Shown here: piece after piece, positions 16,454-64,000 of the stretch
Layout: each line of letters opens with the position of its first letter
How positions within the stretch are numbered: position 1 is the stretch's first letter
NCBI GenBank assembly: GCA_963839305.1
Contig: CAWIUL010000011.1
Span: 2,249,561-2,313,560, forward strand
Length of the DNA stretch: 64,000 nt
Direction of reading: 5' to 3'
Source of the DNA: an uncultured delta proteobacterium
Lineage (GTDB): Bacteria > Myxococcota_A > Polyangia > Polyangiales > Polyangiaceae
Translations under genes and position numbers: made by a program
Notes under the pieces: model-generated
Told to the model about the DNA's origin: nothing
Seen by the model: the letters and a program-made list of their open reading frames with translations, nothing else
Databases searched by the model: none

Positions 16454-16457
16454 ATCC

Positions 16458-38874: not shown

Positions 38875-38909
38875 GATTCTATGTATTCCGAGGTCGGCGC
38901 CGAGGGTCG

Positions 38910-41809: not shown

Positions 41810-41859
41810 GTAACGCAGTGTAACGACCTACGGGCCGCGGCGCGCGCTATCCGAACGTC

Positions 41860-42297: not shown

Positions 42298-42323
42298 CCC
42301 TTCTTCTCGCGTAAAATGAAGCC

Positions 42324-47283: not shown

Positions 47284-48139
47284 CTAGTCTTTGACGGCGT
47301 AGGCGACCATGTCGCCCGTCGTGATCGGGAAGCCCGCGCGCATCACGGGCTGCGGCAGCACCTTGCTCGCGGTCCGCATGACGGGCGTGAAGAGCCAGTG
47401 CGGGAACTCGTCGAAGATGTGCGCCATGTAGCGGACGTTCATCGTCTTGAAGAGCGCGCGCGCGCGGTAGTCGTGGAAGCCGTTCTTCGCGAGCAGCGTC
47501 TCGAGATTCTTCTTCCCGAAGTAGAAGAGGTGCTCGACCTTGTAGTTCGTCCAGCGCATGCCCATCGTGCGCTGCGAGAGCGAGCCGACGTGGGGAACGG
47601 TGAGCGCGATCTTGCCGCCCGGCGCGAGGAGCTCGCGCGCCTTCGAGAGGACGCGCCCAGGGTCGCGAACGTGCTCGAGGAAGTCGCACATCGTGATCAC
47701 GTCGAAGGAGCCCTTCTCGAACGGCGCGTCCTCGAGGTGCCCGCGGAACGCGTGGTCCTTGCCGAAGCGCTCGGCGATTTTGTTCGCGCCGAACTCCGAG
47801 AGCTCGACGCCGTACGGGTCCCAGCCCATGTCCTTGGCGTCGCCCATCAGGAAGCCGGTCGCCGCGCCGCAGTCGAGGAGGCGCCCGCGCGGCGTGCCGG
47901 GGATGCCGCGCAGCACGCGGTGGAAGGTCGAGCGCTTCATCTGCTCGACGGCCTGCTTGTCCGTCTGCAGGCCCCACGCGTCGTAGTAGTGCTCGCCATA
48001 GATGCGATCGAGCGTCTCGTCCGTGGGCTGCGGGTCGATGCGCTCGAGCCCGCACTTCGCGCAGCGCACGAAGTGATGCTCGTCCTTCTCGCCGATCGGG
48101 CTGAAATCAGCCGCGCCGCACACTTCGCATGCTCTCATG
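47284..48139 (-). CDS. class I SAM-dependent methyltransferase with N-terminal Zn-ribbon
   Basis: MRACEVCGAADF..VRCAKCGL.. (CxxC..CxxC). ..LLDCGAATGFL.. motif I. ..PGGKIALTVP... Confidence 0.75.
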
Positions 48140-48229
48140 GCGGCGCGAGATAACCATGAGCGGTCTTTCCTGTCGAGCGGGCCTCGGTTGCTTGACGCGT
48201 TCGACCTCGCGAGGTTACCTCGCGGCATC

Positions 48230-50416
48230 ATGCGCTCCTCGCAGGCGAGCCCTGCAGTCGAACGGGCTTGCCGGGCCCTCGCGATGGTCGCGGGCGCGTG
48301 GTTCGTCTTCACGGCGTGGTGGGGCATGGACGCGATGCCCGCCGGCGGCCACCTCGGAAACGGCGCCGTGGGGCAAGCGCTCGCGGCCGAGAACGCCCTT
48401 CGCTGGCACTCGGTCTATCCGCTCTACGACTGGTACAAGCCGATCAACACGTATCCGGCGGGGTCGATCTGCCACCACCCGTTCGGCATTTACTGGCTGA
48501 GCGAGATCCTCGTCGCGCTCTTCGGCCACCGCGACTTCATCGTGAACCTGCCCGCCGTGCTGATGAGCACGGCGATCCCGTTCATCTTGTGGAAGCTCGG
48601 CAAGCACGCGTGGGGAGCGATCGGCGGCGCCGCAGCGGTGCTCGGGTTCTCGCTCCTGCCGATCGCCGTCGGCTACTCGATCTTCCACGGCCTCGAGAAC
48701 ACGACGATCTTCGGCGCGCTGCTCTTCTACATGGGGACGGCGCGCTTTCAGTCGCACGGCCGAAGGCGCGATCTCGCGTTCGCCGTGATCGGCGCGCTCT
48801 TCGCGACCTCGGGGGACTGGGCCGGTTACCTCGCGCTCGCGCCGACGCTCGGGTGGGCGTTCGTGCGCGCGTTCGTGCTCCCGAGCTGGGCGACCGCGCC
48901 GATCACCGCGCGCGTGCGGTACGACCGCTGGTGGGCGCTCTCGGTCGCCGCGGCGGTGTGCACGCTGATGCTCTGGGTCGTGCTCTTTCATCGCGCCGAC
49001 AAGATCAACGACTGGCTCGGCGCGGCGCTCACGCGCGGCGGCGGCAAGGACATCCCGCTGTCGGTCGTGCTCGAGTCGCGCCGCGCGTGGATCGAGTTCA
49101 GCTTCACGCCGCTCGCGATCGCGATCGGCAAGCTCGCCGCGCCGGTCGCGCTCGCGCGATTTTTGTGGAAGCGCGACGACACCGAGGGCTTCTCGCTCTC
49201 GATGCTGTTCGCCGCGACGGTTCAGTACGTGGTCTTCAAGCAAGGCGCCGACGTCCACATCTTCTGGCCGCACTACTTCTGCGCGTATTACGCGCTCGCG
49301 TTCGCGCAGCTCGTCCGCACGATTTGGGACGTGGTCGCGTGGATGACCTCGAGGATCGCGCCGAAGGCGACGCGCGTCGCGCCGGTCGTCGCGATGATCG
49401 CGACGTGCGCGCCCTCGCTGCTCCTCGCGCCCGACGCGTTCCACTCGCTCCGTGTGTGGCGCTCGACCGGCGGCCGCTACGACGACAAGGGCTCGCTCAT
49501 CCGGAGCGGCGCGGATCTCATCTTCGTGCTCCACGAGATCCTGCGCCCGCAGATGCAACCGAACGAGTCGCTCGCCTTCAACGCCGGCGCGCACGTGAGC
49601 TGGGAGCACAGCTGGGGGCTCTTCCGCGACATGGTCGAGAGCGACGGCCCGAGCCCCTCGTTCCCGTTCTGGGTCGCGCGCGCGAGCGCCCTCGGGGGCG
49701 ACCGAATGACCAAGCTCGCGGCGAGCTATCCGCTCTCGATCTACGGCGACGTCGTCGTGGTGAAGCGCGGCGCGCCGCAGGGCCCCACCCTCGCGTACTC
49801 GCTCGACGAGCACGAGCCGAACGTCTTCCAGTGGATGTTCACCAACAACGTCGAGCCCGTGCGCACCGTCCCGACGGCGCCGGATCCTTTTCGCACGTGG
49901 GAGTGGCGCTACCACCTCGGGCAAGCCGCGGAGGAGCCGACGGCGGCGCCGAAGACCCTCGACGAGATCCGCATCGCTCACAACGCCGCGCTCGCGCGCG
50001 GCGACGCGGCGACCGCCGAGCGCCTTCGCGAGCAGATCCTCGCGCAGATCACCCGCGAGCCCGAGGCCCACTTCGACGGTGGTCACGAGCTCATGGGCGT
50101 TCGGGTGACGCGCGGCGTCCAGCCGGTGCTCGAGAGCTGGTTCCAGGCCGGCGGCCCGACCACGACCGACCAGAATTTCCGCGTCCGCACGAAGATCGTC
50201 CGGCGCGGCCGGCTGAGCCTCATCCCGCCCGACGAGTACGATCGCGAGATGGCTTGGCCGCCGCCGCTGTCGACGAAGCTCTGGAAGACCGGGTTCATCT
50301 ACAAATTCGAGACGGTGATGAACCACCGGATCGGGCTCGAGCGGTACGTCGGGTTCTGGACGGGCGGTCCGCCCAAGCACGCGCCAGACGGGATCACCTT
50401 GGTGGAGGTGGAGTGA
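48230..50416 (+). CDS. polytopic membrane protein, GT-C-fold glycosyltransferase-like (ArnT/PMT-like)
   Basis: About 11 TM segments in the N-terminal ~480 aa, followed by a ~250-aa soluble C-terminal domain. Divergent from the MTase gene. Confidence 0.6.
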   Translation: MRSSQASPAVERACRALAMVAGAWFVFTAWWGMDAMPAGGHLGNGAVGQALAAENALRWHSVYPLYDWYKPINTYPAGSICHHPFGIYWLSEILVALFGHRDFIVNLPAVLMSTAIPFILWKLGKHAWGAIGGAAAVLGFSLLPIAVGYSIFHGLENTTIFGALLFYMGTARFQSHGRRRDLAFAVIGALFATSGDWAGYLALAPTLGWAFVRAFVLPSWATAPITARVRYDRWWALSVAAAVCTLMLWVVLFHRADKINDWLGAALTRGGGKDIPLSVVLESRRAWIEFSFTPLAIAIGKLAAPVALARFLWKRDDTEGFSLSMLFAATVQYVVFKQGADVHIFWPHYFCAYYALAFAQLVRTIWDVVAWMTSRIAPKATRVAPVVAMIATCAPSLLLAPDAFHSLRVWRSTGGRYDDKGSLIRSGADLIFVLHEILRPQMQPNESLAFNAGAHVSWEHSWGLFRDMVESDGPSPSFPFWVARASALGGDRMTKLAASYPLSIYGDVVVVKRGAPQGPTLAYSLDEHEPNVFQWMFTNNVEPVRTVPTAPDPFRTWEWRYHLGQAAEEPTAAPKTLDEIRIAHNAALARGDAATAERLREQILAQITREPEAHFDGGHELMGVRVTRGVQPVLESWFQAGGPTTTDQNFRVRTKIVRRGRLSLIPPDEYDREMAWPPPLSTKLWKTGFIYKFETVMNHRIGLERYVGFWTGGPPKHAPDGITLVEVE

Positions 50417-50478
50417 CCGTCGGCGACGGTCCGCCGGATTGATTTGTCGGGGCGAATGAGCTACCGCGAGCGCGACGA

Positions 50479-51333
50479 ATGAAGCTCACTGGCAAAGTCG
50501 TGGTCGTCACCGGCGGCTCGCGGGGGATCGGCTTCGCGATCGCGCGCGCCCTCGGCCGTGAAGGCGCGAAGGTCGCCATCGGCTCGCGCACGGCCAAGGA
50601 GGTCGACGAGGCGAAGGCGAAGCTCGAGGCCGACGCGATCGAGGTCCTCGCTCGTCCACTCGACGTCACCAATCTCGAGGACGTCACCGCGTTCGTCGGC
50701 GCGGTCGTCGCGCGCTTCGGCACGGTCGACGTGCTCGTGAACAACGCTGGCGTCGGCGGCGCGATCGGATTGCTCGAGGAGTGCGACCCGCGCGAGTGGA
50801 TGCGCACGATCGAGATCAACGTCTTCGGCACGATGAACGCGTGCCGCGCCGTCCTTCCGATCATGCGAAAGAACCGCCGCGGCAAGATCGTGAACCTCGC
50901 GGGCGGCGGCGTCGGCGGACCGGCCGTCGCCACGCGCCTCAGCGCCTACACGACGTCGAAGGCCGCCACGGTGCAGCTCACCGAGGCGCTCGCGAAGGAA
51001 GTCTCCGACGCCAACATCCAGGTGAACGCGATCTCGCCGGGCGCGGTCGTCACCGAGATGACCGCAGCGTTCGTCGCCGCAGGCCCCGAAAAGGCCGGAA
51101 AAGAGCTCTACGAGCGCACGCTGCAGCAGCGCCAGAGCGGCGGCGAGTCGCCCGAGATCGCCGCGCGCCTCGTCGTGTGGCTCGCGTCCGACGCGAGCAC
51201 CCTCACCGGCAAGATGCTCAGCGCGAAGTGGGACAAGGTCGAAGAGATCGATCAAGCCGCCGCGAACCGCTCGTCGCTCTTCACGCTGCGGCGCATCGAC
51301 AACGCCCTCTTCGCAGAGGTCCCCAAGAAATGA
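50479..51333 (+). CDS. SDR-family oxidoreductase
   Basis: TGGSRGIG. NNAG. Catalytic YxxxK as S..YTTSKAA. Confidence 0.9.
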   Translation: MKLTGKVVVVTGGSRGIGFAIARALGREGAKVAIGSRTAKEVDEAKAKLEADAIEVLARPLDVTNLEDVTAFVGAVVARFGTVDVLVNNAGVGGAIGLLEECDPREWMRTIEINVFGTMNACRAVLPIMRKNRRGKIVNLAGGGVGGPAVATRLSAYTTSKAATVQLTEALAKEVSDANIQVNAISPGAVVTEMTAAFVAAGPEKAGKELYERTLQQRQSGGESPEIAARLVVWLASDASTLTGKMLSAKWDKVEEIDQAAANRSSLFTLRRIDNALFAEVPKK

Positions 51334-52298
51334 ACGTCGGCATCATCGGCTGCGGGCTCATCGGCGGCAAACGCGCGGACGCACTGAAGGACACGGGCGA
51401 CAAGCTCGTCGCCACCTTCAATCTCGTCGCCGAGCGCGCGAAGGCGCTCGCGAACAAGCACGGCGCGCAGGCGTGCTCGAGCGCCGTGGAGCTCGTCGCG
51501 AAATCCGACGTGGTGGTCGTCGCGGCGACGAACGATCAGCTCGTCCCGCTGACGATGCTCGCGGTCACCGCGGGCAAGCACGCGGTCGTCGAGAAGCCCG
51601 CGGCGCGCCGCGCGAGCGAGCTCGCTCCGGTCGTCGAGACCGCGCGCGCGAAGAAGCTCGTCGTGAAGGTCGGCTTCAACCACCGCTTCCACCCCGGCGC
51701 GCAGAAGGCCCGCGCGATCCTCGACGAGGGCTCGTGCGGCGACGTCATGTTCATCCGCGGGCGCTACGGCCACGGCGGCCGCATCGGCTACGACAAAGAG
51801 TGGCGCGCCGACCCGGAAAAGTCCGGAGGCGGCGAGCTCATCGACCAGGGCGTGCACCTCATCGACCTCGCGCGCTGGTTCGTCGGCGACGAGTTCACCG
51901 ACGTCTTCGGCCGCGCGGAGACTTATTTCTGGAAGATGCCCGTCGACGACAACGCGTTCCTCACGCTCGCGACGCCGAAGCGCCAGGTCGCGCACCTCCA
52001 GGTCTCGTGCACCGAGTGGAAGAACATGTTCTCCCTCGAGATCTACGCGCGCCACGCGAAGCTCCACCTCGAGGGCCTCGGCGGCAGTTACGGCGTCGAG
52101 CGCCTCTACCACTATCAAATGCGCCCCGAGATGGGCCCGCCGGACACGGTCGTCTACGAGTACCCGCCGTTCGACAAATCCTGGGCGCTCGAGTGGGCCG
52201 ACTTCAAGAGCGCGGTGGCCAGCGGCAAGCGCGCGTGCGGCGACGTGATCGACGCGCTCGAGGCGCTCAAGATCGTCGACAAGGTCTACGGGCGCTGA
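51330..52298 (+). CDS. Gfo/Idh/MocA-family oxidoreductase
   Basis: ATGA overlap with the SDR gene. MNVGIIGCGLIGGKRA.. Rossmann N-terminus. ..EKP.. motif. Confidence 0.85.
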   Translation: MNVGIIGCGLIGGKRADALKDTGDKLVATFNLVAERAKALANKHGAQACSSAVELVAKSDVVVVAATNDQLVPLTMLAVTAGKHAVVEKPAARRASELAPVVETARAKKLVVKVGFNHRFHPGAQKARAILDEGSCGDVMFIRGRYGHGGRIGYDKEWRADPEKSGGGELIDQGVHLIDLARWFVGDEFTDVFGRAETYFWKMPVDDNAFLTLATPKRQVAHLQVSCTEWKNMFSLEIYARHAKLHLEGLGGSYGVERLYHYQMRPEMGPPDTVVYEYPPFDKSWALEWADFKSAVASGKRACGDVIDALEALKIVDKVYGR

Positions 52299-52304
52299 GG
52301 GAAC

Positions 52305-53327
52305 ATGGACACGACACGAGTTTTCACCGAAGAGGACGCGAAGAAGCGCTGGTTCGTCACGGGCGGCGCGGGCTTCATCGGGAGCCACGCCGTCGACCTC
52401 CTCGTCTCCGCGGGCTGCCGCGTCACGGTCTTCGACAACCTGAGCCTCTCGACGGACCAGTACATCGCCGAGCACGTCAAGAGCGGGAAGATCGACTTCA
52501 TCCGCCACGACCTCCTCAATCTCGAGGCCGTCACGAAGGCGATGGCGGGCCACGACATCGTCTGGCACCTCGCCGCGAACACCGACATCCCCTCCGGCTT
52601 CAAGAAGCACCGCATCGACCTCGACAACTCCGTCACCGCGACGTGGAACGTCCTCGAAGCGATGACGAAGACTGGCGTCAAGCAGCTGCTCTTCTCGTCG
52701 ACCGGCGCGGTCTACGGCGAGGCGATCGAGGGCACGTTCAAGGAGTCGTCGGGCCCGCTCACGCCGCTCTCGCTCTACGGCGCGGGGAAGATCGCGAGCG
52801 AGGCGTTCATCGCCGCGTACTGCAACCTCTTCGGCATCCAGGCGTGGGTCTATCGCTTCGGCAACGTCATCGGCGAGCGCACGAACCACGGCATCATCTA
52901 CGACTTCATCGCGAAGCTGAAGAAGAGCCCTGCGGAGCTCGAGGTCCTCGGCACGGGCAAGGGCGAGAAGAACTACTTCCTCGTCGAAGAGTGCATCCAC
53001 GGCATGCTGTACACGCACCACCGCATGCCGAACGGGCCGTTCCCGTATCTCGTGAACCTCGGCACCGACTCGACGTCGAAGATCATGGAGATCGCCGCGA
53101 TCATCGTCGAGGAGATGGGACTCGGCGACGTGAAGTACAAGTTCACGGGGACGCCGCGGGGGTGGCCGGGCGATCAACCCGTGGTGCTGCTCGACACGAC
53201 GAAGATCCACGAGCTCGGCTGGTGGGCGAAGCGCACGTCGAACGACGCCGTGCGCAGCGCGACGCGGCGCCTGCTCGGCACCGAGAAATTCATGCTCAAC
53301 ACGAGGACGCTCCATGGCGACGTTTAG
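52305..53327 (+). CDS. NAD-dependent epimerase/dehydratase
   Basis: VTGGAGFIGSH. Catalytic YGAGK. 340 aa. Confidence 0.9.
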   Translation: MDTTRVFTEEDAKKRWFVTGGAGFIGSHAVDLLVSAGCRVTVFDNLSLSTDQYIAEHVKSGKIDFIRHDLLNLEAVTKAMAGHDIVWHLAANTDIPSGFKKHRIDLDNSVTATWNVLEAMTKTGVKQLLFSSTGAVYGEAIEGTFKESSGPLTPLSLYGAGKIASEAFIAAYCNLFGIQAWVYRFGNVIGERTNHGIIYDFIAKLKKSPAELEVLGTGKGEKNYFLVEECIHGMLYTHHRMPNGPFPYLVNLGTDSTSKIMEIAAIIVEEMGLGDVKYKFTGTPRGWPGDQPVVLLDTTKIHELGWWAKRTSNDAVRSATRRLLGTEKFMLNTRTLHGDV

Positions 53328-53913
53328 CGAGACGTTTTTGCAAGAGAGCGCGGCGCTCATCCAAGGGCTCGACGCGCAGATGATCGAGAAGATGGCCGAG
53401 GGCCTCGGCGCGGTTCGCGACGGCGGCGGTCGCTTGTTCATCCTCGGCGTCGGCGGCTCCGCCGGCCACGCGAGCCACGCGGTGAACGACTTCCGGAAGA
53501 TCTGCGGCTTCGAGGCGTACGCACCGACCGACAACGTGTCGGAGCTCACCGCGCGCACGAACGACGAGGGCTGGGAGACGACGTTCATCGAGTGGCTCAA
53601 GACCTCGCGCCTCTCGAGCAAGGACGCGGTGCTCATCTTCTCCGTCGGCGGCGGCAACAAAGAGAAGAACGTGTCCGTGAACCTCGTACGCGCGCTCGAG
53701 CTCGCGAAGGAGCGCGGCGCCAAGGTGTTCGGCATCGTCGGCCGCGACGGCGGCTACACGAAGCAGGTCGCGGAGGCGTGCGTGCTCGTGCCGGTGGTCC
53801 ACAAGGACCGCGTCACGCCGCACACCGAGGGATTCGCGGCCGTCGTGTGGCACCTCCTCGTGAGCCATCCGCGGCTCCAGAAGGCCGCGACGAAGTGGGA
53901 ATCCACGAAGTGA
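53314..53913 (+). CDS. gmhA: SIS-domain sedoheptulose-7-phosphate isomerase
   Basis: ..LFILGVGGSAGHASHAVNDF.. and ..IFSVGGGN.. are GmhA-like. 199 aa. Confidence 0.8.
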   Translation: MATFSETFLQESAALIQGLDAQMIEKMAEGLGAVRDGGGRLFILGVGGSAGHASHAVNDFRKICGFEAYAPTDNVSELTARTNDEGWETTFIEWLKTSRLSSKDAVLIFSVGGGNKEKNVSVNLVRALELAKERGAKVFGIVGRDGGYTKQVAEACVLVPVVHKDRVTPHTEGFAAVVWHLLVSHPRLQKAATKWESTK

Positions 53914-53923
53914 GCTCCTCGCG

Positions 53924-54523
53924 ATGATGAAGGGCGTCGTCCTCGACCGCGACGGCACGCTCGTCGACGTCGTGCGCGACGAGGACACGGGAGTCATCAC
54001 GACGGCGTTTCATCCCTCGCAGCTGCGCATCCTTCCTGGGGTGATCGATGGCCTCAAGGCGCTCGCGGACGCGGGGTTCGTGCTGTCGATCGCGAGCAAC
54101 CAACCGGGCCCTGCGAAGGGACACTTCTCGCGCGACGCGGTCCAAAAGACCAACGACGCGCTCGTCGCGATGCTCGCGAAGGAGGGCGTCGCGATCGCGA
54201 AGGTGGTGGTCTGCATGCACCACCCCGACGGAGGTCCCGGCGGCGACCCGACGCTCGTCGGCCCGTGCGACTGTCGCAAGCCGATGCCAGGGATGTTCCG
54301 CGACATCATCGCGTCGCTCGGGCTCGACGCGGCTCGTTCGTGGGCGATCGGCGACACGACGTCGGACGTGGAGGCGGGACGCGCGGCCGGCTTGAAGACG
54401 GCGCTCTTGTTCGACACGAAGCGGTGCGAGCTGTGCCCGCTCCGAAACGGCCCAGCGTGCACGCCCGACGTCCACGCGGCGAAGTTCGAGGCGCTCGCGA
54501 AGGCGATCCTCGCGCAGGGCTAA
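53924..54523 (+). CDS. gmhB: HAD-family D,D-heptose 1,7-bisphosphate phosphatase
   Basis: VVLDRDGTL (DxDGT motif). Zn-binding CxH...C.C (CMHHPDG..CDCRKP) as in GmhB. ..GDTTSD... Confidence 0.8.
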   Translation: MMKGVVLDRDGTLVDVVRDEDTGVITTAFHPSQLRILPGVIDGLKALADAGFVLSIASNQPGPAKGHFSRDAVQKTNDALVAMLAKEGVAIAKVVVCMHHPDGGPGGDPTLVGPCDCRKPMPGMFRDIIASLGLDAARSWAIGDTTSDVEAGRAAGLKTALLFDTKRCELCPLRNGPACTPDVHAAKFEALAKAILAQG

Positions 54524-54528
54524 TTCGT

Positions 54529-55139
54529 TCACGGGCAGGACGACAGTCGGTACGTCGGGTTTCGGCCGTTCGGGCCCGGGACGTTGTCCGTGTAAGGACC
54601 GTCCGCGAGCCACAGCCCGAGCTCGCCGCCCGCGAAGTCGAATTCGTAAGGCGCGTCGCTCGCGAGGTTCGCGTTCACGCACGCGTCGAAGCTCGTGAAG
54701 CCGCCTTGGTTCGGGTAGAAGCCTACGGTGCCCGGCACCGGCGCGATCACCGTGTTGCCGCTCGTCACGAGGTAGAGCGTGTCAGGCCCGTTGGCGTACG
54801 CGTTCACGGTCCACGCCTGCGACGACGAGTACTTCATGCAGCCGTCGACGTAGGTCACGCGGTAGTGCCCGGCGGGAAGGGGCGCCCCGTTGTTCCAGCG
54901 CGTCGTCGCGCCGAGCGCATCGGCGACGAGCGTGCCGTAGTCGCAGAGGGGCAGTGGCGGGCTCACGTCGGGCGCCGAGTCGACGGCGGCGTCGTGGACG
55001 TCCGGAGCGCCTGCGTCGTGGACGTCCGGAACGCTCGAGTCGAACGAGGCTGCGTCGAGCTCGAGCACGTCGAGCTCGGTGCGCGCGCCGCACGCGCACG
55101 CGAAGCTCGCGACGAGCGTGAACACCTCGCGCCTCATCT
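54529..55139 (-). CDS. secreted hypothetical protein
   Basis: MRREVFTLVASFACACGA signal peptide, then acidic repeats (PDVHDAGAPDVHDAAVDSAPDV) and a ~130-aa domain with 6 Cys. Confidence 0.45.
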
Positions 55140-55235
55140 TGCGTATTCTACCGCCACGACATTGGGCATCGCCGACGTTTTCTTCCTGCGAAGCGCGCGT
55201 GAAAAAGTCCGCGCGCGCCCACCCGAGCGGCACGC

Positions 55236-56121
55236 GCTCGTGCGCCGCTGGTGGAGGGTCGCGCGCGAGCGCCTCCGCGTCGCGGAGCGGCTCGATCCGC
55301 AGCTCGAGAGCGCCGCGGCGTGGCCGCTCTATCGAGACGGCGTGCGCGCGCTGGCGTGCGCGGCGGTCGCTGCGGTCTCCGGCGAGGTGAACGAGGCGGA
55401 CGGCGCAGACGTCGAGTCGGCGTGGGCCGCGCTCGAGCGCGTCTGGCCAAAGCTCGACGCGCCCGCCGCGCTGGAGGCGTTCGCGGCTGGGCGTGAACTG
55501 CTCCGCGAGCGACCCACGCTCGACGCGCCGAGGCCCGATCGCGCGACCGCGACCGCCGCGTGTCAGGCGATCGATCGGCTCGCGCGGTGCGTCGAGCGCG
55601 CGATCGAGCCGCGCACGATGCGCCAGGTGCAGACCGCGAGCGTCCTTCGCGTCGCGCCGATCGTGATCGCGCCGATCGCGCTCGCGGCGTGGCTCGTCCC
55701 GCCGATGTTCGCGCCGAAGAGCCTCGCGCTCCACAAGCGCGTCGCCGTGAGCTCGAGCCGTGAGTCGGAGGCGCCGCCCGGCGGTGGCGACGTCGTCAAC
55801 GGCGTCATCGAGCACACGTACGGGATGCAGACGAACGAAGAGGACAACCCCTGGGTGCTCGTCGACCTCGAGCGGCCGACCTACGTCGCGCGCGTCGTCG
55901 TCTACAACCGCGGCGACGGTTGGTTCGACGACTGCTTGCCGCTCGTCGCCGAAGTGGGCAACGACGAGAAGGCGCTTCGCGTGATCGCGACGCGTGACAA
56001 GCCCTTCTCCCAGCACCGCCCGTGGGAGCTCCCGCTGCACGACACGATCCGCTTCATCCGCCTCTCGAAGAAGGGGCACGGCTACATCACGCTCGCCGAA
56101 ATCGCGGCGTACGCGAAGTAG
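55236..56121 (+). CDS. membrane-anchored discoidin (F5/8 type C)-domain protein, paralog 1 (start uncertain; TTG 55163 or GTG 55236)
   Basis: Helical cytoplasmic N-terminal region, a single TM LRVAPIVIAPIALAAWLVPP, then a C-terminal ..WVLVDLERPTYVARVVVYNRGDGWFDDCLPLVAEVGNDEKALRVIATRD...IRFIRLSKKGHGYITLAEIAAYAK. Confidence 0.55.
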
Positions 56122-56123
56122 AT

Positions 56124-57710
56124 CTAACGATCGCGCGCGAGGACGAGCGCGTTGAAGCGGCCGCCCCACATCGGCGTGATCGCGAAATTGTGCTCGTACG
56201 GGTTGCACTCGAAATACGCGACCGCGTGGTACCCGGGCACCTCACGGAACGGCCAGAGATCGCCCGCGTGGCCGAACACGTCCGGGTACGACGCGACGAG
56301 CACGTAGTCCGGGTGGCGTCGCGCCGCGTCGTCGGCGCTCGTGACGTCCGGTGTGAACACGAGGTGCGACCGATCGCGCGTCGGTCGTAGGTCTTGGCGA
56401 ATGCCCATGACGTCGGCGATGACCGTGTTCGTGCACGCCACGGTCGTGGTCTTCGAGACGCGCGCCGCGATCCAGTCGAGCGCGCGCGTTCGTGCGTCGA
56501 CCGAGAGCGTCTGCGCGCGCGCTGCCTGGACGATCGACACCACGACGAAGAGCCCGATGAACGCCGCGGCGAGGAGAGCACGCGCGCTCGTCGCGAGCCG
56601 AACGCGCGACGCCTCCGCGTGGAGCCACGCCATCGAGAACCCGATACCGATGCAGAGGATGGGCGCTGCGCCGAGGTAGTTGCGGAACAGGAACGCGCGG
56701 CTCGTGAACGCGAATCCGAGGAGCAAGAGCGCAGCCTGCGTCGTCCCGAGGACGACGATGACGCTTCGCTGACGCCACGCGAGCACCAAGCCCGAGACGG
56801 AGAGCGCTCCCGCGATGCCAGCCGCCCACGGCCACCGATGAAAGAGCTGAAAGAGGAGCGCGTGGGCCTCGCCGGCGAGGTGCTCTGGCCCTGGCCATCG
56901 GAGGAGGAGCTCCGGGACGCCGCCGTCGACGGTCTGGTTGACGCGCAGGCGGATGTCGCGGACCGCGAGGCTCGCGTGAAGGAGGAAGTGCGGGTTCAGC
57001 GCGTAGAACACGAACGCCGCGAGGGGTATGGCCCAAGCGAACCGAAGCGCGCGCTGGCGCCACGTGCCCGCCTTCAGAGCGAGCAGCACGATCGGGACGA
57101 GGAGCGTCAACGTCGCGGTCAGCTTGAAAGCCACCGCGAGCGCCGCGAACGTGACCGTCGCGATCGCCCACCGCGTGCGGCCGCCGCGGACGTACAGCGC
57201 GCCGAATGCGAGCGTCCACGCGCTCAACGCGACGAGGTTCGCGTCGGTCGCCGCGTATCGCCCGTGGGTGACGAGCTCCGCGCCCGCGGCGTACGCGAGC
57301 GCCGCGTAGATCGCGCGAGGACGCGCCCAGCGATCGCCGAGGGTCGCGAAGCGCGCGGCGACGTAGATCGCGAACGCCCCAGTCGACGAGATGATCGCCG
57401 TGACGTCACGACCGATGACGCGAAGGAGCACGCCGTCGGTCGTGTCGAACACGCGCTCCGGGTGCAGTGCGCGCAATGCCAGGATGACGAGCGCCGCGAT
57501 CGTCGAAGGGGGCGCGCCGTACTGATACGTCTGCGGCATCCACGCGCTCGTCTGAAGCATGTGGGCCGTGTTGTCGGTGACCCAGCCCTCGTCCCAGTGG
57601 TGGTAGTAGGGCAAGCCCAAGCGGATGCCGAGGTAGCGCAGCACGAACGCGAGCACGACGATCGCCGAGGCCGCGAGCCAGTCGACGCGATCGAACGCGT
57701 TCGCCCTCAT
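56124..57710 (-). CDS. GT-C-fold membrane glycosyltransferase-like protein (ArnT/PMT/GT39-83-like)
   Basis: MRANAFDRVDWLAASAIVVLAFVLRYLG.. About 12 TM segments and a C-terminal soluble domain. ATGA overlap with the upstream discoidin gene. Confidence 0.65.
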   Translation of the reverse strand: MRANAFDRVDWLAASAIVVLAFVLRYLGIRLGLPYYHHWDEGWVTDNTAHMLQTSAWMPQTYQYGAPPSTIAALVILALRALHPERVFDTTDGVLLRVIGRDVTAIISSTGAFAIYVAARFATLGDRWARPRAIYAALAYAAGAELVTHGRYAATDANLVALSAWTLAFGALYVRGGRTRWAIATVTFAALAVAFKLTATLTLLVPIVLLALKAGTWRQRALRFAWAIPLAAFVFYALNPHFLLHASLAVRDIRLRVNQTVDGGVPELLLRWPGPEHLAGEAHALLFQLFHRWPWAAGIAGALSVSGLVLAWRQRSVIVVLGTTQAALLLLGFAFTSRAFLFRNYLGAAPILCIGIGFSMAWLHAEASRVRLATSARALLAAAFIGLFVVVSIVQAARAQTLSVDARTRALDWIAARVSKTTTVACTNTVIADVMGIRQDLRPTRDRSHLVFTPDVTSADDAARRHPDYVLVASYPDVFGHAGDLWPFREVPGYHAVAYFECNPYEHNFAITPMWGGRFNALVLARDR

Positions 57711-58618
57711 CGGACGGGGCGCCCGCGGACCTCGAGCTCGTTCAGTCCGATCGCGCACGTCGCGTTGCAGCGAAGGCGCACGCCGCGCACCCACGCGCCC
57801 TTGTCCTTCGGCACGTCGTACGTCCACGTCCTGAAGTGATCGCGCCGCTTGACGACGGGCGTCCAGTGCTCGCCGTCGACGGTGAGCTCGATCCAGAACG
57901 GCAGCGCCGCGTCGAAGTTCTGGTCTTGGCGGTTCACGAGGCGGACGGTCGTCACTTGGTAGTTCGTTCCGAGATCCACCGCGAGCCACGAGCCTGCGCC
58001 GCTCGTCGTCGTCACGGCCTTGCGCGCCTCGGTCACGCCGTCGACGAGCGTCTCCGGGGTGGCCGAGTCGTACCCGAAGGCGCTCGCCGTCACGGGCCGG
58101 TGCAGCGCGACGTTCGGCGGCGTGATCACCTCGCGCGCGACGTGAAAGATCGCGAACGACACGAGCAGCGCGAGCGCCGCGTGGCGGAGCTGGCGCGTCA
58201 TCCGAATCACGGAGACGCTCCGCGACTCCACGGCGCGCGCACAAGCGCGCTCGACGCGCTCGAGCGAGTCGCGCATCGCCTCGAGCTCTTCGCGCGAGAG
58301 CGCTTCGAGCGCGGCGTCCTCAATCGCGAGGACGCGCTCGGCGCACGCCCGATCGGCCGCGGCTATCGGGAGGCCGTCCAGCGACGCGCGCGCGTCCTCG
58401 GCCTCGCCGCGCGCGACTCGACCCGCGCGCAAGCGAAGCTCGATTGCCTCGCGTAGCAGCGCGACCGCGCTCGCGTCGTCCCGCGGGGCGTGGAGCTCGC
58501 GCGCGACCTTGGCGCGCGATTGAGCCGCCGCGGCGAGCACGCCGATGCGCTCCGCCTGCTCCACGGTGTACTTCGCCGCGCGCTGCTCGGCCTCCGCCAG
58601 CAGAAGCCGCTCCCTCAA
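57707..58618 (-). CDS. membrane-anchored discoidin-domain protein, paralog 2
   Basis: Helical N-terminus, TM LRHAALALLVSFAIFHV, then a C-terminal ..WLAVDLGTNYQVTTVRLVNRQDQNFDAALPFWIELTVDGEHWTPV...VRGVRLRC..IGLNELEVRG. Confidence 0.6.
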   Translation of the reverse strand: MRERLLLAEAEQRAAKYTVEQAERIGVLAAAAQSRAKVARELHAPRDDASAVALLREAIELRLRAGRVARGEAEDARASLDGLPIAAADRACAERVLAIEDAALEALSREELEAMRDSLERVERACARAVESRSVSVIRMTRQLRHAALALLVSFAIFHVAREVITPPNVALHRPVTASAFGYDSATPETLVDGVTEARKAVTTTSGAGSWLAVDLGTNYQVTTVRLVNRQDQNFDAALPFWIELTVDGEHWTPVVKRRDHFRTWTYDVPKDKGAWVRGVRLRCNATCAIGLNELEVRGRPVR

Positions 58619-58700
58619 AGTGCGAGGGGGGGAGCACGGTGCTCACGTTCTTGCTGGTATTCCGTTTCGCGCGCGCTTGCAAACCGCAGCGCAAACACCG
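58619..58700. promoter_or_regulatory. divergent promoter region between two glycosylation operons
   Basis: 82-bp gap between divergently oriented starts (58618 minus strand, 58701 plus strand). Confidence 0.3.
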
Positions 58701-60008
58701 ATGCTGCCGCGGTTCATGACGCTCGAGCGCCTCCGCAAGCTCGCCGTGACGCTGCCGTTTCGCGCGATCGTGGCTTGCCTCTGCTTGTGGCTGCACCTCC
58801 AGGCGTTCGAGAAGCTCGGTCGCGAGCGTTTCGACTTCGAGGTTTTCCAAGCGCCGAACACCCACGCGCCGGGGTTCGTGACCGAGCGGGATCTCGTGCC
58901 GCGCGACTGGTCGCGCCTGCTCGTGTCGCGATGGGACGCGCAGCACTACATGGAGCTCGGCCTCCGCGGCTACAAGGAGTGCAAGAACAAGGCTGATCTC
59001 AAGCCCGACGAGTACCCGGACGACGAGCCGCGCTGCCAGCTCAACTTCTTCCCGACCTACGGCCTCATCGGCGCGTGGGTCGGCGAGAAGCTCGGGTGGG
59101 CCATCGACTGGTCGCTCTTCGCCGTTTCGATCGTCTCGAGCTTCGTCTTCCTCATGCTCTTCACGAGCCGCGTCGTGACGAAGCCGCTCGGCGTCGGCAC
59201 GACGTACCTCGCGCTCTTGCTCTTCAACACGTTCACGACGGGCTTCGCGCTCGTGACCGTGCAGACGGAGCCCATCTTCCTCGCGACGGCCATGGCGACC
59301 TACTACTGCTTCGCGAGGCGCTGGCTGCTGCCTGCGGCGATCCTCGCCGGGTTCGCGAGCGCGATCCGCATCACGGGCGTGGCGGTGGGATTCGCGTATT
59401 GCGTCGCGCTCTTGATGCTCACGCTCGCCGAGCGCCCGCGCGTTCGCGTTTGGGCGCTACGCGCCGTCTACGCGGCGATCTCGGGCTGGGGGATCCTCGT
59501 CTTGATGGCGTACTTCCAGCACAGGTTCGGCGATCCGCTGATCTACTCCCACGCCCACGGCCGCGCGTACCACCACGATCCGAACATCGACCTGATCATC
59601 CACCCCGACACGCGCCTGCTCATGCAGTCGATCTGGGGCGAGCCGCACGACGGCGTCTTCTTGGGCGGGAGCCTGCTCTGGTTCGGGCTCGGCCATCGCA
59701 AGGCGCTCGAGCGCTTCTCGATCCCGGCCCAGGCGTTCTTCTACGTGCTCTTCGTCTCCGTCATCGGCATCGCGATGATCGGCTCGTCCGAGTACGCCTA
59801 TGGCGGCCTGACCCGCTACCTCCTCGGCGCGCTCCCGCTGTTCTTCGCCATGGCGGCGATGATGCGCAATCGCCCGGTCGTGCTCGCCATGTGGCTCTAC
59901 ATGAGCCTCGCGCACTACTGGGGCGGAGATCTCTGCGATTACGTCGGACTGACCGAGGGCAGCCGCATCGAGCGGTGCGGGTTCGCTCGGCACTTTACGT
60001 CGAATTGA
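58701..60008 (+). CDS. polytopic membrane protein, GT-C-like (putative glycosyltransferase)
   Basis: About 10 TM segments. Conserved-looking acidic loop ..DEYPDDEPRC... Confidence 0.55.
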   Translation: MLPRFMTLERLRKLAVTLPFRAIVACLCLWLHLQAFEKLGRERFDFEVFQAPNTHAPGFVTERDLVPRDWSRLLVSRWDAQHYMELGLRGYKECKNKADLKPDEYPDDEPRCQLNFFPTYGLIGAWVGEKLGWAIDWSLFAVSIVSSFVFLMLFTSRVVTKPLGVGTTYLALLLFNTFTTGFALVTVQTEPIFLATAMATYYCFARRWLLPAAILAGFASAIRITGVAVGFAYCVALLMLTLAERPRVRVWALRAVYAAISGWGILVLMAYFQHRFGDPLIYSHAHGRAYHHDPNIDLIIHPDTRLLMQSIWGEPHDGVFLGGSLLWFGLGHRKALERFSIPAQAFFYVLFVSVIGIAMIGSSEYAYGGLTRYLLGALPLFFAMAAMMRNRPVVLAMWLYMSLAHYWGGDLCDYVGLTEGSRIERCGFARHFTSN

Positions 60009-60027
60009 CGGTCACCTACGTTGCCGC

Positions 60028-60928
60028 CATGTCGGCCGTGCGCGCGTTCTTCGTCGGCCTGCGCGAGGTCTTCACGCTCGAGCGAGCCGAGGCGCGAGCG
60101 CTCTCGCTCGACGACGCCGAGCGCGCGCGGCGAAAGCGCTTCGTCCGCGCGTCGCGTGACCGCTGGAACGCGGCGAACAAGCTCGCGAGCCCGATCGCGG
60201 CGATCGTCCTCTTGCGCGAGTCGCTCGCCCTCGCGCTCGAGGCCGCGAGCAACGCGCCGCTCGCAGACCTCGTCGCGGCGCACGTCGCCGACGAGGACAT
60301 CGCGCGTGCCGAGCGATTCCTCGCGCCGATCGCGCCGCTCTCCATCGACGAGCTCCCGTTCGCGGAGGTCGAGGCCGTGCGCCTCTCGCTCGAGCGCTGC
60401 GTCGCGGCGGTGCTCCGCGCGGTCGACACGCGCACGGTCGTCGCGGTGCGCGCGCTCCGCATCGCGCGGCCCATCGCGGTGCTCGCGTTCGTCGCGTGGC
60501 TCGTCGTGCCGTACGCGCGGACGCACTGGATGATCCACGACGTCGCGCTCGGCAAGGTCGTCACGAGCAGCCCGCTCCGCGGCGAGTCGCCGTCGGCCGA
60601 TCACGTCGTCGACGGCAAGACCCGCGGGACTTTCGACATCGCGACCGTGATCACGGATCACGCGTTCGTCATGGTCGACCTCGGCGAGACGTACGCGATC
60701 GACCACGTCCGCGTCGTGAACCGTGGAGACGGCTGGTTCGACGACATCCTGCCCGTCTCTCTGGAAATCTCCGAGGACGGCGCGCAGTTCACGAACGTGG
60801 CGCGCAAGGACGACCACTTCGAAACGTGGACCGTCGCGCTCGGCGGCCGCCGCGCTCGATTCGTTCGCTTGATCAAGCCGGACCACGGCTACATCGCGAT
60901 CAACGAGCTCGAGGTGTACGCGCGATGA
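60028..60928 (+). CDS. membrane-anchored discoidin-domain protein, paralog 3
   Basis: Helical N-terminus, TM LRIARPIAVLAFVAWLVVP, then a C-terminal ..FVMVDLGETYAIDHVRVVNRGDGWFDDILPVSLEISEDGAQFTNV...ARFVRLIKPDHGYIAINELEVYAR. Confidence 0.65.
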
Positions 60929-62757
60929 CCGACCCTCGCCGCGAGCCGCGCTGGCGTTTGTGGGTCAACCGCGGCCTCCTCGTCTTCTCGTTCATTCTCG
61001 TGATGGGGATGATCGCGCTCGTCACGGCGCCGATCTGGAGGCCGCTCGACACCTACGGCATCCACGACTGGGACGCGATGCAGGCGTACCGGTTCATCAC
61101 GGTCAAGACGCTCAAGGACTACCACCAGCTGCCGTTCTGGGACCCGTACAACTGCGGCGGCCACACGTGGTGGGCGGGCTACGAGAGCGGCTCGAACCTC
61201 GTCTCGCCGTGGCTGCTCGGGTACCTGCTGCTGCCGTTCCCGATCGCGCTGCGCGTCGAGGTCGCCGGCGCGGCGCTGCTCGGCGCGGCGGGCACGTGGG
61301 CGCTCGCGGGGCGCTTCACGAAGAGCCCGGGCGCGCGCCTCGCGTGCGCCGCGGTCTTCTTGAGCAGCCGCTGGGGCCTTCAGACCTCCGTCGGCCACAT
61401 GTGGCACTTGTATTATGCATGGACTCCGTGGGCGCTCTTCTTCCTCGATCGCGCGCTCGCGATGCGCCCGCCCGTGACCACTTCTCAGCGGCGCGACGTC
61501 ATCCTCCTCGGCGCGACGCTCGCGATGATGGTCTACACCGGCGGCATCTACCCGCTGCCGCACACGGTCATCCTCCTCGGGATCTACGCGGCGTACCACG
61601 CGATCGTCGCGCGCTCGTGGCGACCGATCTTGCTCCTCGGCGGCGCGGGCGTGCTCTCGGTCGCGTTCTCGGCGCCGCGTCTCCTTCCGCTGATCGACAT
61701 GCTCCGGCGCTTCCCTCGCCTCGTGAGCTCGACGGAGGCGCTCGATCTGACGGGGCTCGTGGGCGTCTTCACGTCGTCGTCGCCCGAGACTCGCCCGGCC
61801 GTGACGCCGTGGGGCTGGCACGAGTGGGGCATCTACACCGGGTGGTTGCCGTTCGTCGGCATGTTCGCCGCGATGATCTTCGCACGGCGCGTGCACGAGC
61901 GAGCGCTCGTCCTCGCGGGGGCGATTTGCATGCTCGTGGGCATGGGTCGATTCAGCCCGTACGCGCCGTGGGGGCTCATGCACGACTACATCCCGATCTT
62001 CGAGTCGCAGCACGTGCCCTCGCGCTGGCTGTACCCGGCGTCGATCGTCCTGTTCGTCGCGATGGTCGCGATCATCGAGCGCTGGCTCGCGCGCGTCGAG
62101 CGGCGCACGTGGCTCGAGGTCGCGTTTCTGTTCGTCGGTGCGTACATCGCGCTCGACATCGGGCTCGAGGCTCAGAAGCCTCTGGTCGGCTCGTTCGTGC
62201 GCCACCTGAACAACGTCCAGGACAGCACCGGCCCGTTCCACATGGAAAAGACGGCGCCACCGAACGCGCGCTACGACATGTCCGATTGGGCGGCGACGTC
62301 GATGCCGCCGATGCTCGTGAACGTCGGCACGAAGGACTGCGCGACCTTCCCGGGCCTCCACACCTACTTCTGGGATCGCAACGGCCACATGCCCGGCATC
62401 GGCGCGAAGGCCGTCGGCGAGCCGGACTACCGCGGCGAGGCGTACACCGCGAGCGGCACGGGCGTCGCGGACGTCATCGCGTGGTCGCCGAACGCCGTGA
62501 CGGTCAGCTACCGCGGCGCCAACCCGGGCGACGTGCTCGTGCTCAACCAGAACTGGGACCCCGGCTGGCGCGCGCAGGGCTCGGCCGTGGTGAACTTCCG
62601 CGACGCGGTCGGCACCACGATCAAGACGCGCGACGGCGAGGTCACGTTTCGCTACGTGCCGCGCTTCCTCTACGTCGGTTGCCTGATGTGCGCGGTGGCG
62701 ATCGCGGTGCTCGTGTGGATGTGGCGCGCGAAGGTCCGCGTGCTCAGTACGGCGTGA
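60925..62757 (+). CDS. YfhO-like / GT-C-fold membrane glycosyltransferase-like protein
   Basis: ATGA overlap with the discoidin paralog 3 gene. About 12 TM segments plus a C-terminal beta-rich extracytoplasmic domain and a final TM (..VGCLMCAVAIAVLVWMW). Confidence 0.65.
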   Translation: MTDPRREPRWRLWVNRGLLVFSFILVMGMIALVTAPIWRPLDTYGIHDWDAMQAYRFITVKTLKDYHQLPFWDPYNCGGHTWWAGYESGSNLVSPWLLGYLLLPFPIALRVEVAGAALLGAAGTWALAGRFTKSPGARLACAAVFLSSRWGLQTSVGHMWHLYYAWTPWALFFLDRALAMRPPVTTSQRRDVILLGATLAMMVYTGGIYPLPHTVILLGIYAAYHAIVARSWRPILLLGGAGVLSVAFSAPRLLPLIDMLRRFPRLVSSTEALDLTGLVGVFTSSSPETRPAVTPWGWHEWGIYTGWLPFVGMFAAMIFARRVHERALVLAGAICMLVGMGRFSPYAPWGLMHDYIPIFESQHVPSRWLYPASIVLFVAMVAIIERWLARVERRTWLEVAFLFVGAYIALDIGLEAQKPLVGSFVRHLNNVQDSTGPFHMEKTAPPNARYDMSDWAATSMPPMLVNVGTKDCATFPGLHTYFWDRNGHMPGIGAKAVGEPDYRGEAYTASGTGVADVIAWSPNAVTVSYRGANPGDVLVLNQNWDPGWRAQGSAVVNFRDAVGTTIKTRDGEVTFRYVPRFLYVGCLMCAVAIAVLVWMWRAKVRVLSTA

Positions 62758-64000
62758 CGACGACCGGGTTGCCCGAGGCGCGGTAGATCGCCCGGTCAGG
62801 GAAGCTCGCGCGGATGCACTGCGTGTACTCGGGCTTGCGCTCGATCGCGATGAGCACGTCCTGGTTCGGGTAGAGATCGATCGGGTAGTTCTCGGTGAGA
62901 TCCAGCGGGTCGAAGCCCGTCGCGCCGACCTGCGCCATGACGACCGCGTGGTGGATCCCCGTCTCGCGGATGCGCTCGTTCAGCGAAGCGTGCTGGTGCA
63001 CGTGCGCATAGATGCCCGGGTAGAGCAGCGGCCAGAGGCGCACCGTCGTGACGACCATCGTCGCGATCGCGACGGCGAGCGGCCCCCCCGCCCAGAACGC
63101 GCCGTTCGGCGAGCACCGCTTCATCGCGGACTGCGCGAGCGATCCGAACGCGACGCCCGCGCCGATCGCCATGAGGACGATGAACGGCGTCTCGTAGCGC
63201 GGGCCGTAGCCCCAGTCGAAGCCGCGGCCGAGCGCGAGGTACTGATAGTGAGCATCGAAGACGAACAGACCGATGAGCGTCATCACGATCACGCCTCGCG
63301 CGCCGCGGCGGAGCGAGACGACGCCGGCGAAGCCGACGGCGAGCGAGCACGGAAACCACGCGTAGCTGCCGGTCGCGAGCGGCATCGCGAACTTCCACTC
63401 GCTGGACCGCGGCCAGCCGTACTTCACCGTGTCCCAGGTGTGGATGAGCGAATAGATCGAGTAGCCCGTCTTGAACCACTCGCCGAGCTGCGCGCGCAGG
63501 ATGACGAGGCTGAGCACGCCCCAAAAGAGGAACGCGGCGAGCGCGCCGAAGAACGCGCGCTTGCCGATGCGCCGCTTGAACAGCGAGTACACGAAGTAGA
63601 CGGCGAGCCCGACGGAGAGCGTCGCGCCGTCGGCGGGACGCGCGGCGCCCATGAGCGCGATGAACGAGCCGAGCGCGACGCCCCACTTGAGCTCGTCGTG
63701 CGGCGAGGGGCGGCCTTTGCAGATCACGAGGAGCGCTTCGATCGACCACGCGAAGAGCGCCGCGACGAACACGTGCGCGTAGCGCGAGGCGCCGACGAGG
63801 AGCGTTGTGGTCGCGAACGTCGCGACGCCGGCCGCGATGAAGCCTGCAGCGGCCGCGCCCGCGCTGTTGCCGCGTCCGTCGAGCGCCATCGAGCGCCTCG
63901 CGACGCGCGCGACGCCGACCGCCATGAGGCCGTGCGACACGGGGCCCGCGAACCACGGCACGCCGAGCGCCACGAACGGCGTCATGAACAGCGGCCAACC
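62744..64000 (-). CDS. polytopic membrane protein (GT-C-like), N-terminus beyond window edge
   Basis: ORF open to the window end. Multiple TM segments plus a C-terminal soluble domain. Convergent with, and overlapping, the YfhO-like gene. Confidence 0.5.
   Translation of the reverse strand, partial: GWPLFMTPFVALGVPWFAGPVSHGLMAVGVARVARRSMALDGRGNSAGAAAAGFIAAGVATFATTTLLVGASRYAHVFVAALFAWSIEALLVICKGRPSPHDELKWGVALGSFIALMGAARPADGATLSVGLAVYFVYSLFKRRIGKRAFFGALAAFLFWGVLSLVILRAQLGEWFKTGYSIYSLIHTWDTVKYGWPRSSEWKFAMPLATGSYAWFPCSLAVGFAGVVSLRRGARGVIVMTLIGLFVFDAHYQYLALGRGFDWGYGPRYETPFIVLMAIGAGVAFGSLAQSAMKRCSPNGAFWAGGPLAVAIATMVVTTVRLWPLLYPGIYAHVHQHASLNERIRETGIHHAVVMAQVGATGFDPLDLTENYPIDLYPNQDVLIAIERKPEYTQCIRASFPDRAIYRASGNPVVVTPY

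Follow-up and report, generated by a model that had tools for sequence, protein, structure and literature searches.

A 64,000 nt stretch of contig CAWIUL010000011.1 (assembly GCA_963839305.1, positions 2,249,561 to 2,313,560 of the forward strand), from an uncultured member of the Polyangiaceae, was analysed and is referred to here as the window. It has about 69% G+C, and open reading frames (ORFs) were judged by third-position GC (GC3) and homology. Towards its right end are three ORFs, paralogs A, B and C, with one common layout of an N-terminal helical domain, one transmembrane (TM) helix and a C-terminal beta-sandwich. An earlier inspection of the letters alone (the original prediction) had proposed three genes of this architecture, paired with GT-C membrane glycosyltransferases. 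All three exist, and B lies where it had been placed, at 57707-58618 on the minus strand, but A and C had been drawn one base off; as 55236-56121 and 60028-60928 their lengths are not divisible by three and the translations are out of frame. In its correct frame C occupies 60029-60928 (+), while the frame of A (55162-56121, +) is fixed by the stop at 56121, its most plausible start being the TTG at 55162, with a GTG at 55240 as the alternative.

The TM helix begins about 135-150 residues from the N-terminus in each protein. The paralogs had been noted to align through the TM helix and the domain that follows it; the alignment runs from end to end, with whole-length identities of 24% (A-B), 30-33% (A-C) and 37% (C-B). 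For B and C, the basic residues on either side of the TM helix point towards an N-in orientation; those of A are neutral. An AlphaFold2 model of C, made with 23 family sequences, has a predicted local distance difference test score (pLDDT) of 89 and consists of a helical bundle (residues 2-131), the TM helix (137-166) and a beta-sandwich (170-299).

Genes for polytopic membrane proteins lie between and around the three paralogs: PMT759 (48137-50416, +, starting at ATG 48137 or ATG 48230), M528 (56124-57710, -), M435 (58701-60008, +), M610 (60925-62757, +) and M413p (62744-64000, -). The stop codon of M610 faces that of M413p, and A and M528 are likewise convergent. Both of the ATGA stop/start overlaps that had been predicted were seen in the sequence, joining B to the start of M528 at 57707-57710 and C to the start of M610 at 60925-60928, as was the 82 nt gap (58619-58700) from which B and M435 diverge. 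No sigma-70-like consensus was found in this gap, and a promoter/terminator scan was uninformative. The gap between M435 and C is 20 nt.

The C-terminal domains had been described as discoidin-like, and they are significant members of that superfamily. Paralogs B (37.3 bits, PF00754) and C (40.6 and 39.7 bits) exceed the gathering scores of the Pfam models F5_F8_type_C and F5_F8_type_C_2, while A (26.7 bits, PF22633) falls slightly short of 27.8 bits; in the same F5/8 type C Pfam test both domains were carried by 22/22 close homologs. The fold is the eight-stranded jelly-roll beta-sandwich of the F5/8 type C or galactose-binding-like superfamily, and the closest structural class is the F-type fold, the best Foldseek matches being lectinolysin and SpX-3 (E ~1e-11), followed by modules of the carbohydrate-binding module (CBM) family CBM32. 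The discoidin label thus holds at the level of the superfamily, but the domain is not a generic discoidin; it is F-type-lectin-like with an altered sugar-binding triad.

F-type lectins, for which a 6-deoxy sugar is a ligand, carry a cation motif h-h-D-G-x, a fucose motif H...R-x-D-x4-(R/K) and a Cys-Cys bridge (PMC5712786). The cation motif is present here, with V or T at position 194, D or N at 195 (142/145 family members) and G at 196 (145/145), and the R-x-D core is near-invariant (R in 145/145, D in 142/145). Compared with eel agglutinin AAA, striped-bass FBP32, Streptococcus pneumoniae SpX-3/CBM47 and lectinolysin, however, the basic triad is incomplete: the window paralogs are without the His, and Asp or Glu stands in place of the last Arg/Lys. 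Instead of Cys-Cys (12-16/145), most members (~90%, including A and C) have Gly-Trp, and B has Asp-Gln. A further difference is that the domain is joined to a TM helix and a cytoplasmic domain, in a gene that lies beside those for glycosyltransferases and not inside a toxin or hydrolase. It is an F-lectin-like scaffold with a site that is strongly conserved yet altered, and 'fucose-binding lectin' is the wrong name for it. The term lectin is used below as shorthand for the family.

In family alignments the N-terminal domain, which carries the motif (A)FFxGLREvFxLxxAExRA, matches the lectin domain in its degree of conservation. It has no match in Pfam or in either fold search. Weak PDB sequence matches to a 40-residue helix hairpin of allophycocyanin were judged to be compositional and were set aside.

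The GT-C label given to the membrane proteins holds for some of them. It is secure for M610, which has the fold, and for PMT759, an ArnT/PMT-like protein of the PMT_2 family (34.7 bits against a cut-off of 26.1) with orthologs in 8+ related loci, often adjoining a lectin gene. M528, in which the motif HHWDE follows TM1, is below the PMT_2 cut-off (20.7 bits); two of its orthologs score 16.4 and 21.5 bits over the same region of the profile (PF13231) and one has no match, so that the match is suggestive and M528 is probably a GT-C enzyme. M435 and M413p gave no match of any kind, and are at most candidate GT-C proteins. Motifs placed after an early TM helix are the sole pointers in these two, RWDAQHY (as SRWDAQHY, after TM1) in M435 and ADEWAY (as GSADEWAY, in its orthologs) in M413p, and they give a hint of GT-C membership. 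Sequence-profile searches of the PDB returned nothing usable for M610, M528, PMT759 or M435, and hhalign comparisons between the membrane families, with profiles that were too shallow, found no relationship.

The AlphaFold2 model of M610 (pLDDT 85.8, predicted template modelling score 0.88) shows a polytopic N-terminal module with the GT-C fold, followed by a C-terminal beta domain and a final TM helix. Directly after TM1, in the first extracytoplasmic loop, is the acidic motif G-x-H-D-W-D, in which G45, D48, W49 and D50 are invariant in 32 sequences and have a putative catalytic role. The description of M610 as YfhO-like is fair at the family level, since 11/32 family members match Pfam YfhO (PF09586; best E 4.8e-8), but M610 itself has no match in Pfam (at E<=1) or NCBIfam, and a precomputed YfhO match is present in 2 of the 120 M610 homologs listed (P0023-P0142). 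The analysis assigns a GT-C fold, from a confident model, to this family of at least 425 proteins, all annotated as 'hypothetical'; Pfam misses most of them, and a new family model could be made for the group. One homolog, P0129 (929 aa), has an N-terminal extension of ~318 aa, either a fusion or a mis-called start; the extension is unrelated to the lectin domain, which rules out P0129 as a lectin-GT-C fusion.

M435 is a conserved polytopic protein, present in L002, L004, L005, L011, L012, L015 and L017 of the related loci described below, and has no match in Pfam, NCBIfam or the PDB; its 147 homologs are all unnamed. The family (homologs P0292-P0411) is restricted to Polyangia and consists of polytopic proteins of ~430 aa with no Pfam domain. 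The best database identity of the window copy is 90%, against 100% for C and M610, and its gene was perhaps left uncalled in the source record. M413p comprises the C-terminal ~415 residues of a polytopic protein of 576-649 aa that runs off the window; the full-length orthologs, like M413p, have no Pfam match, and the gene is also convergent with M610 in L001 and L004.

An exhaustive search with a hidden Markov model (HMM) retrieved 879 representatives of the lectin family at E<=1e-30, none with a name, compared with just 22 relatives of C from a word-indexed search. Paralog A scores 282 bits on the family HMM. Among the best 150 of the 879, most are single-stretch, full-length proteins of 285-350 aa. 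From neighbourhood look-ups, GTDB species genomes and JGI metagenomes, 51 related loci (L handles) were gathered, and the named records among them are metagenome-assembled genomes (MAGs) of Polyangiales, Polyangiaceae or Myxococcales, together with one Binatia MAG. HMM mapping of the window and the 51 loci gave 47 unique full-length family genes, of which 35 could be evaluated, the contigs of the other 12 being too short for a judgement. Of the 35, 30 directly adjoin a gene for a large polytopic membrane protein: in 25 cases a gene of a defined family lies within 150 nt (M610, 13; PMT759 family, 6; M528, 4; M435, 2), and in five another large polytopic ORF lies within 400 nt, one of which passes both PMT_2 and PMT. 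For the remaining 5/35 a polytopic gene is found within 3.5 kb. These counts supersede an earlier estimate based on GC3 gene calls (13/22 adjacent against a background of 29%, p=0.007), an undercount because real genes had been dropped. The predicted pairing of a TM-anchored lectin-like protein with a GT-C enzyme is therefore a recurrent genomic unit, conserved among related genomes. It is real, is not due to chance, and involves a large uncharacterised protein family. As the original prediction had suggested, no description of the architecture or the pairing was found in a literature search, which covered an incomplete library.

A neighbour-joining tree sorts the lectins by partner. In the clade of C (11 loci) M610 is always immediately downstream, with a stop/start overlap in several genomes. 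An ATGA overlap like those of the window occurs in L001, L002 and L004. The A-type clade (the window, L016 and L035) is always convergent with M528, and two separate further clades are convergent with genes of the PMT759 family. Two claims of the original prediction have to be narrowed in this light. The coupling of B to M528 is real as an ATGA overlap, but this pair is seen in the window only, the conserved partner of M528 being the convergent A-type gene. The repeated unit does occur in three copies here, but three copies together are a peculiarity of this genome; in L001 there is the C/M610 pair only, while L004 and L005 have two copies each, of the B and C types. A recent tandem duplication is ruled out by the 24-37% identity and by the presence of each paralog's clade in other genomes, and the three copies are therefore ancient subfamilies.

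To our knowledge, bacterial GT-C enzymes (ArnT, PglB, PMT, YfhO, Emb/Aft) are usually treated as self-sufficient, single-subunit enzymes, and where their acceptor recognition is understood it uses fused CBMs. The reading that we favour, tentatively and with nearly as much confidence as doubt, is that the ~300-aa proteins are non-catalytic subunits dedicated to glycan recognition, each of which would act in trans on the neighbouring GT-C enzyme, a proposal drawn from genomic data. Each, as a type-II (N-in) protein, would place a cation-binding, F-type-lectin-like beta-sandwich in the periplasm and the helical domain in the cytoplasm, and would form a physical complex with its partner, the C-type proteins with the YfhO-like M610, the A-type with M528 and other clades with PMT_2 enzymes. 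The lectin domain would bind a periplasmic acceptor, either a growing envelope glycan or a glycoprotein, and present or retain it at the GT-C active site, and the enzyme is predicted to transfer a sugar to it from a polyprenyl-phosphate donor. This donor would probably derive from the heptose-like nucleotide sugar specified by upstream genes. If so, lectin partners would give a handle on the acceptor specificity of many orphan GT-C enzymes, would establish a link between a new cytoplasmic domain and envelope glycosylation, and would open the nearly unstudied envelope glycobiology of Polyangia myxobacteria.

There is precedent for such assistance. In EmbC, AftD and the GT136 protein ORF12, CBMs fused to the GT-C enzyme bind the acceptor polysaccharide (PMC11127046). 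Compared with these mycobacterial (EmbA/B/C, AftD) and Citrobacter (ORF12) enzymes, the module here is F-type-lectin-like and has a gene to itself, its product being anchored by a TM helix of its own and bearing a conserved cytoplasmic domain of ~135 aa, and one lectin family would serve at least three unrelated GT-C families. The lectin domain is on a separate ORF in all 51 loci, and in none is it part of the same polypeptide as the enzyme, as the CBMs of Emb, AftD and GT136 are. We regard the pairing as a variation on the theme of the CBM-assisted GT-C enzyme and not as a new kind of system. Three-component extracytoplasmic glycosylation (GtrA/GtrB/Gtr*, or CsbB-GtcA-YfhO for teichoic acids) resembles the present case in its terminal GT-C (YfhO-like) enzyme, in the presumed polyprenyl-phosphate sugar and, among relatives, in a GT2 gene in the cluster. 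It differs in that no flippase of the GtrA, GtcA, MATE or SMR type and no GT2 was found in the window, and the lectin-TM protein is without counterpart in the described systems. Nor are the accessory proteins homologous to those of eukaryotic multi-subunit or lectin-assisted GT-C enzymes, such as the accessory subunits of oligosaccharyltransferase or the MIR domain of PMTs.

A stronger form of the proposal, in which at least three unrelated GT-C families (YfhO-like, PMT_2-like and M528-type) would be obligate two-subunit holoenzymes with a single-pass F-lectin-like subunit, appears somewhat unlikely. The periplasmic domain would then select the acceptor glycan and the cytoplasmic domain would couple transfer to the synthesis of the lipid-linked donor. 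Were it true, the multi-subunit GT-C machines of eukaryotes would have a counterpart in bacteria, and glycan specificity would be set in a new way.

Several observations weigh against the lectin acting as an acceptor-binding subunit in trans. At the triad, the His of the fucose motif is present in 92/145 family members (63%) and is Q, T and A in A, B and C, and the last position is D or E in 112/145 (77%) and R in 3/145; sugar binding by the domain is therefore not assured, and the conserved surface might be an interface with another protein instead. M610 has a beta-rich, C-terminal periplasmic domain of its own, and no natural lectin-GT-C fusion was found among 411 proteins compared. The partners of B-type lectins vary (M528 in the window, M435 in L004, PMT759 in L005), a soluble gene separates lectin and GT-C in L003, L050 and L014, and on the short contigs L030 and L033 only housekeeping genes are visible as neighbours. 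On the donor side, no homolog of the relatives' GT2 is present in the 64 kb, and the ORFs scanned in the window gave no GT2, GtrA or MATE match and no flippase candidate. Lastly, pure acceptor binding leaves the conserved ~135-aa cytoplasmic domain without a role.

This unexplained conservation keeps alive another reading, in which the protein would be a sensor or regulator working across the membrane: the periplasmic lectin domain would sense an envelope glycan or a lipid-linked intermediate and the cytoplasmic domain would relay this inwards, in an anti-sigma-like or one-component-like manner, by modulating donor-synthesis enzymes or sequestering a regulator. The layout is that of classic signalling proteins, including anti-sigma factors and single-pass sensors, with a conserved cytoplasmic N-terminal helical domain (L-R-E-x-F-x-L-x-x-A-E), one TM helix and a periplasmic ligand-binding domain, and the cytoplasmic part, as well conserved as the lectin domain, matches no known fold or family. 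A candidate cytoplasmic target is encoded in L014, where a methyltransferase-GT2 fusion directly follows the lectin gene. The resemblance ends there, however, as no sigma or transcription factor gene adjoins (the ECF sigma genes of L001 and L004 are ~8 kb away), and DNA-binding, kinase and cyclase domains, the anti-sigma zinc motif and any sequence or profile similarity to such proteins are lacking. Three copies that are translationally coupled and track different GT-C families also fit stoichiometric subunits better than regulators. We consider a sensor unlikely. An anti-sigma factor in the strict sense was rejected, with no sigma gene beside any copy, no motif, and no Pfam or PDB match to the N-terminal domain.

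Several polytopic enzymes and several lectin paralogs occur together in the cluster, as a multi-step periplasmic assembly line would need, and methyltransferases are recurrent in these clusters. The lectin could on this basis act in chain-length control, termination or hand-off, reading the terminal residue of a finished polymer (a methylated or 6-deoxy-heptose cap) and then stopping elongation or passing the glycan to the next GT-C enzyme or to export, in the manner of Wzz/PCP proteins or of the CBM of Wzt ABC transporters. Recognition of a terminal residue by a CBM is established for Wzt (PMC11127046), and F-type lectins recognise a 6-deoxy sugar (PMC5712786). We nevertheless judge this quite improbable, as there is no likeness to PCP/Wzz folds, no ABC transporter, Wzx or Wzy gene was identified in the cluster, and an enzyme-bound subunit accounts at least as well for the way in which each clade pairs with a single GT-C family. 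There is, finally, a poor chance that lectin and enzyme are co-located and independent, forming no enzyme complex, with the lectins serving as membrane anchors that retain or organise finished glycan at the inner membrane, or being themselves substrates of GT-C glycosylation. Linkage alone does not prove a complex, and some members lie beside housekeeping genes (L030, L033) or are split from the GT-C gene by others (L003, L014), but the stop/start overlaps and partner-specific clades hold down to ~35% identity, and the alignments show none of the Ser/Thr-rich linker typical of O-glycosylation substrates.

The nucleotide-heptose genes that had been proposed next to the module are part of a sugar cluster upstream of A. 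The best NCBIfam matches do include HddA, GmhA and GmhB, but all are below the curated cut-offs. The cluster begins with genes for an HddC/MurU-like sugar-1-phosphate nucleotidyltransferase (44653-45366, +; Pfam NTP_transferase E=1.3e-13, NCBIfam MurU best at 96 bits and HddC 52 bits, both below cut-off), a GHMP sugar kinase most similar to the heptose-7-phosphate kinase HddA (45373-46368, +; Pfam GHMP_kinases_N and _C, HddA 164.5 bits against a cut-off of 600) and an enzyme of the transaldolase/fructose-6-phosphate aldolase family (46417-47070, +; Pfam TAL_FSA E=2.6e-34, NCBIfam fsa_talC_mipB 161 bits, below cut-off), for which supply of sedoheptulose-7-phosphate is a possible role. An S-adenosylmethionine (SAM)-dependent methyltransferase is encoded on the opposite strand (47284-48327, -; Methyltransf_23 E=1.5e-21), in an ORF of uncertain start that overlaps the possible 5' end of PMT759. 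After PMT759 come a short-chain dehydrogenase/reductase (SDR; 50479-51333, +; adh_short E=1.3e-53), a Gfo/Idh/MocA sugar oxidoreductase (51333-52298, +; GFO_IDH_MocA and its C-terminal domains), an NAD-dependent nucleotide-sugar epimerase/dehydratase (52305-53327, +; Epimerase E=1.5e-41, GDP_Man_Dehyd E=1.3e-36), a SIS-domain isomerase with GmhA as best match (53314-53913, +; SIS_2, NCBIfam gmhA 52 bits, below cut-off) and a HAD-IIIA phosphatase with GmhB as best match (53924-54523, +; Hydrolase_like and HAD_2, GmhB 119 bits against 178). Together these similarities point to a probable pathway resembling that of GDP-glycero-manno-heptose, with tailoring steps.

A GT2 gene is present in the relatives L001, L004, L006, L014 and L051, and methyltransferase-GT2 fusions occur in some relatives. 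In L001 (4659-6143), L004 (2213-3586) and L006 the GT2 protein has 457-494 aa, and its gene lies between the PMT_2 gene and the SDR/Gfo genes; at the same junction in the window (50416-50479), just 62 nt separate PMT759 from the SDR gene. Either the donor synthase is encoded elsewhere or it is dispensable.

Between this cluster and A is a gene for a putative lipoprotein (MRREVFTLVASFAC...; 54529-55137, -) that was not in the list of the original prediction, and is recognised from its translation, the GC3 frame plot and a tblastn match to L001. It is divergent from A, with its start 24 nt from the TTG at 55162. The protein, of ~200 aa, has a lipobox-like LVASFAC and a Cys-rich C-terminal part, and no match in Pfam or NCBIfam. 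As the gene is also found divergent beside the lectin gene in L001 (9329-9916, -), the module may include this protein as another conserved part.

Other features recur near lectin genes in the related loci. Genes for FG-GAP / UnbV_ASPIC repeat proteins are found near the clusters in the window (36832-38919, -), L003 (7489-9906), L050 (5495-7906) and L002 (17863-19755), and in L003 and L050 they lie directly between the lectin and the M610-like gene. The lectins of these two loci belong to the most divergent clade; each lectin gene stands first in an operon-like series (L003 10989-20987, L050 8990-16987) coding for a methyltransferase, ketosynthase, AMP-ligase, epimerase, acyl carrier protein, B12/radical-SAM enzyme and acyl-CoA dehydrogenase, a set that suggests a lipid- or acyl-modified glycan. 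In L042 (5455-10139), two convergent lectin genes bracket genes for a 543-aa protein with seven TM helices and an Acyl_transf_3 membrane acyltransferase, from which it appears that the family may also pair with envelope-modifying enzymes that are not GT-C. The lectin and M610 homologs of L015 (9986-12673) are broken into several frames, either by assembly frameshifts or by pseudogenisation.

Elsewhere in the window, a small leucine-rich-repeat protein (41824-42297, +) and a MerT-HMA fusion (42315-42917, +) are encoded immediately upstream of the gene for formate-tetrahydrofolate ligase, which lies at the border of the sugar cluster. At 12086-16930 (-) is a gene for a 1614-aa regulator with Ser/Thr kinase, STAND NTPase, TPR, GAF, sigma-54 activator AAA+ and Fis-type helix-turn-helix domains; multidomain regulators of this kind are typical of myxobacteria.

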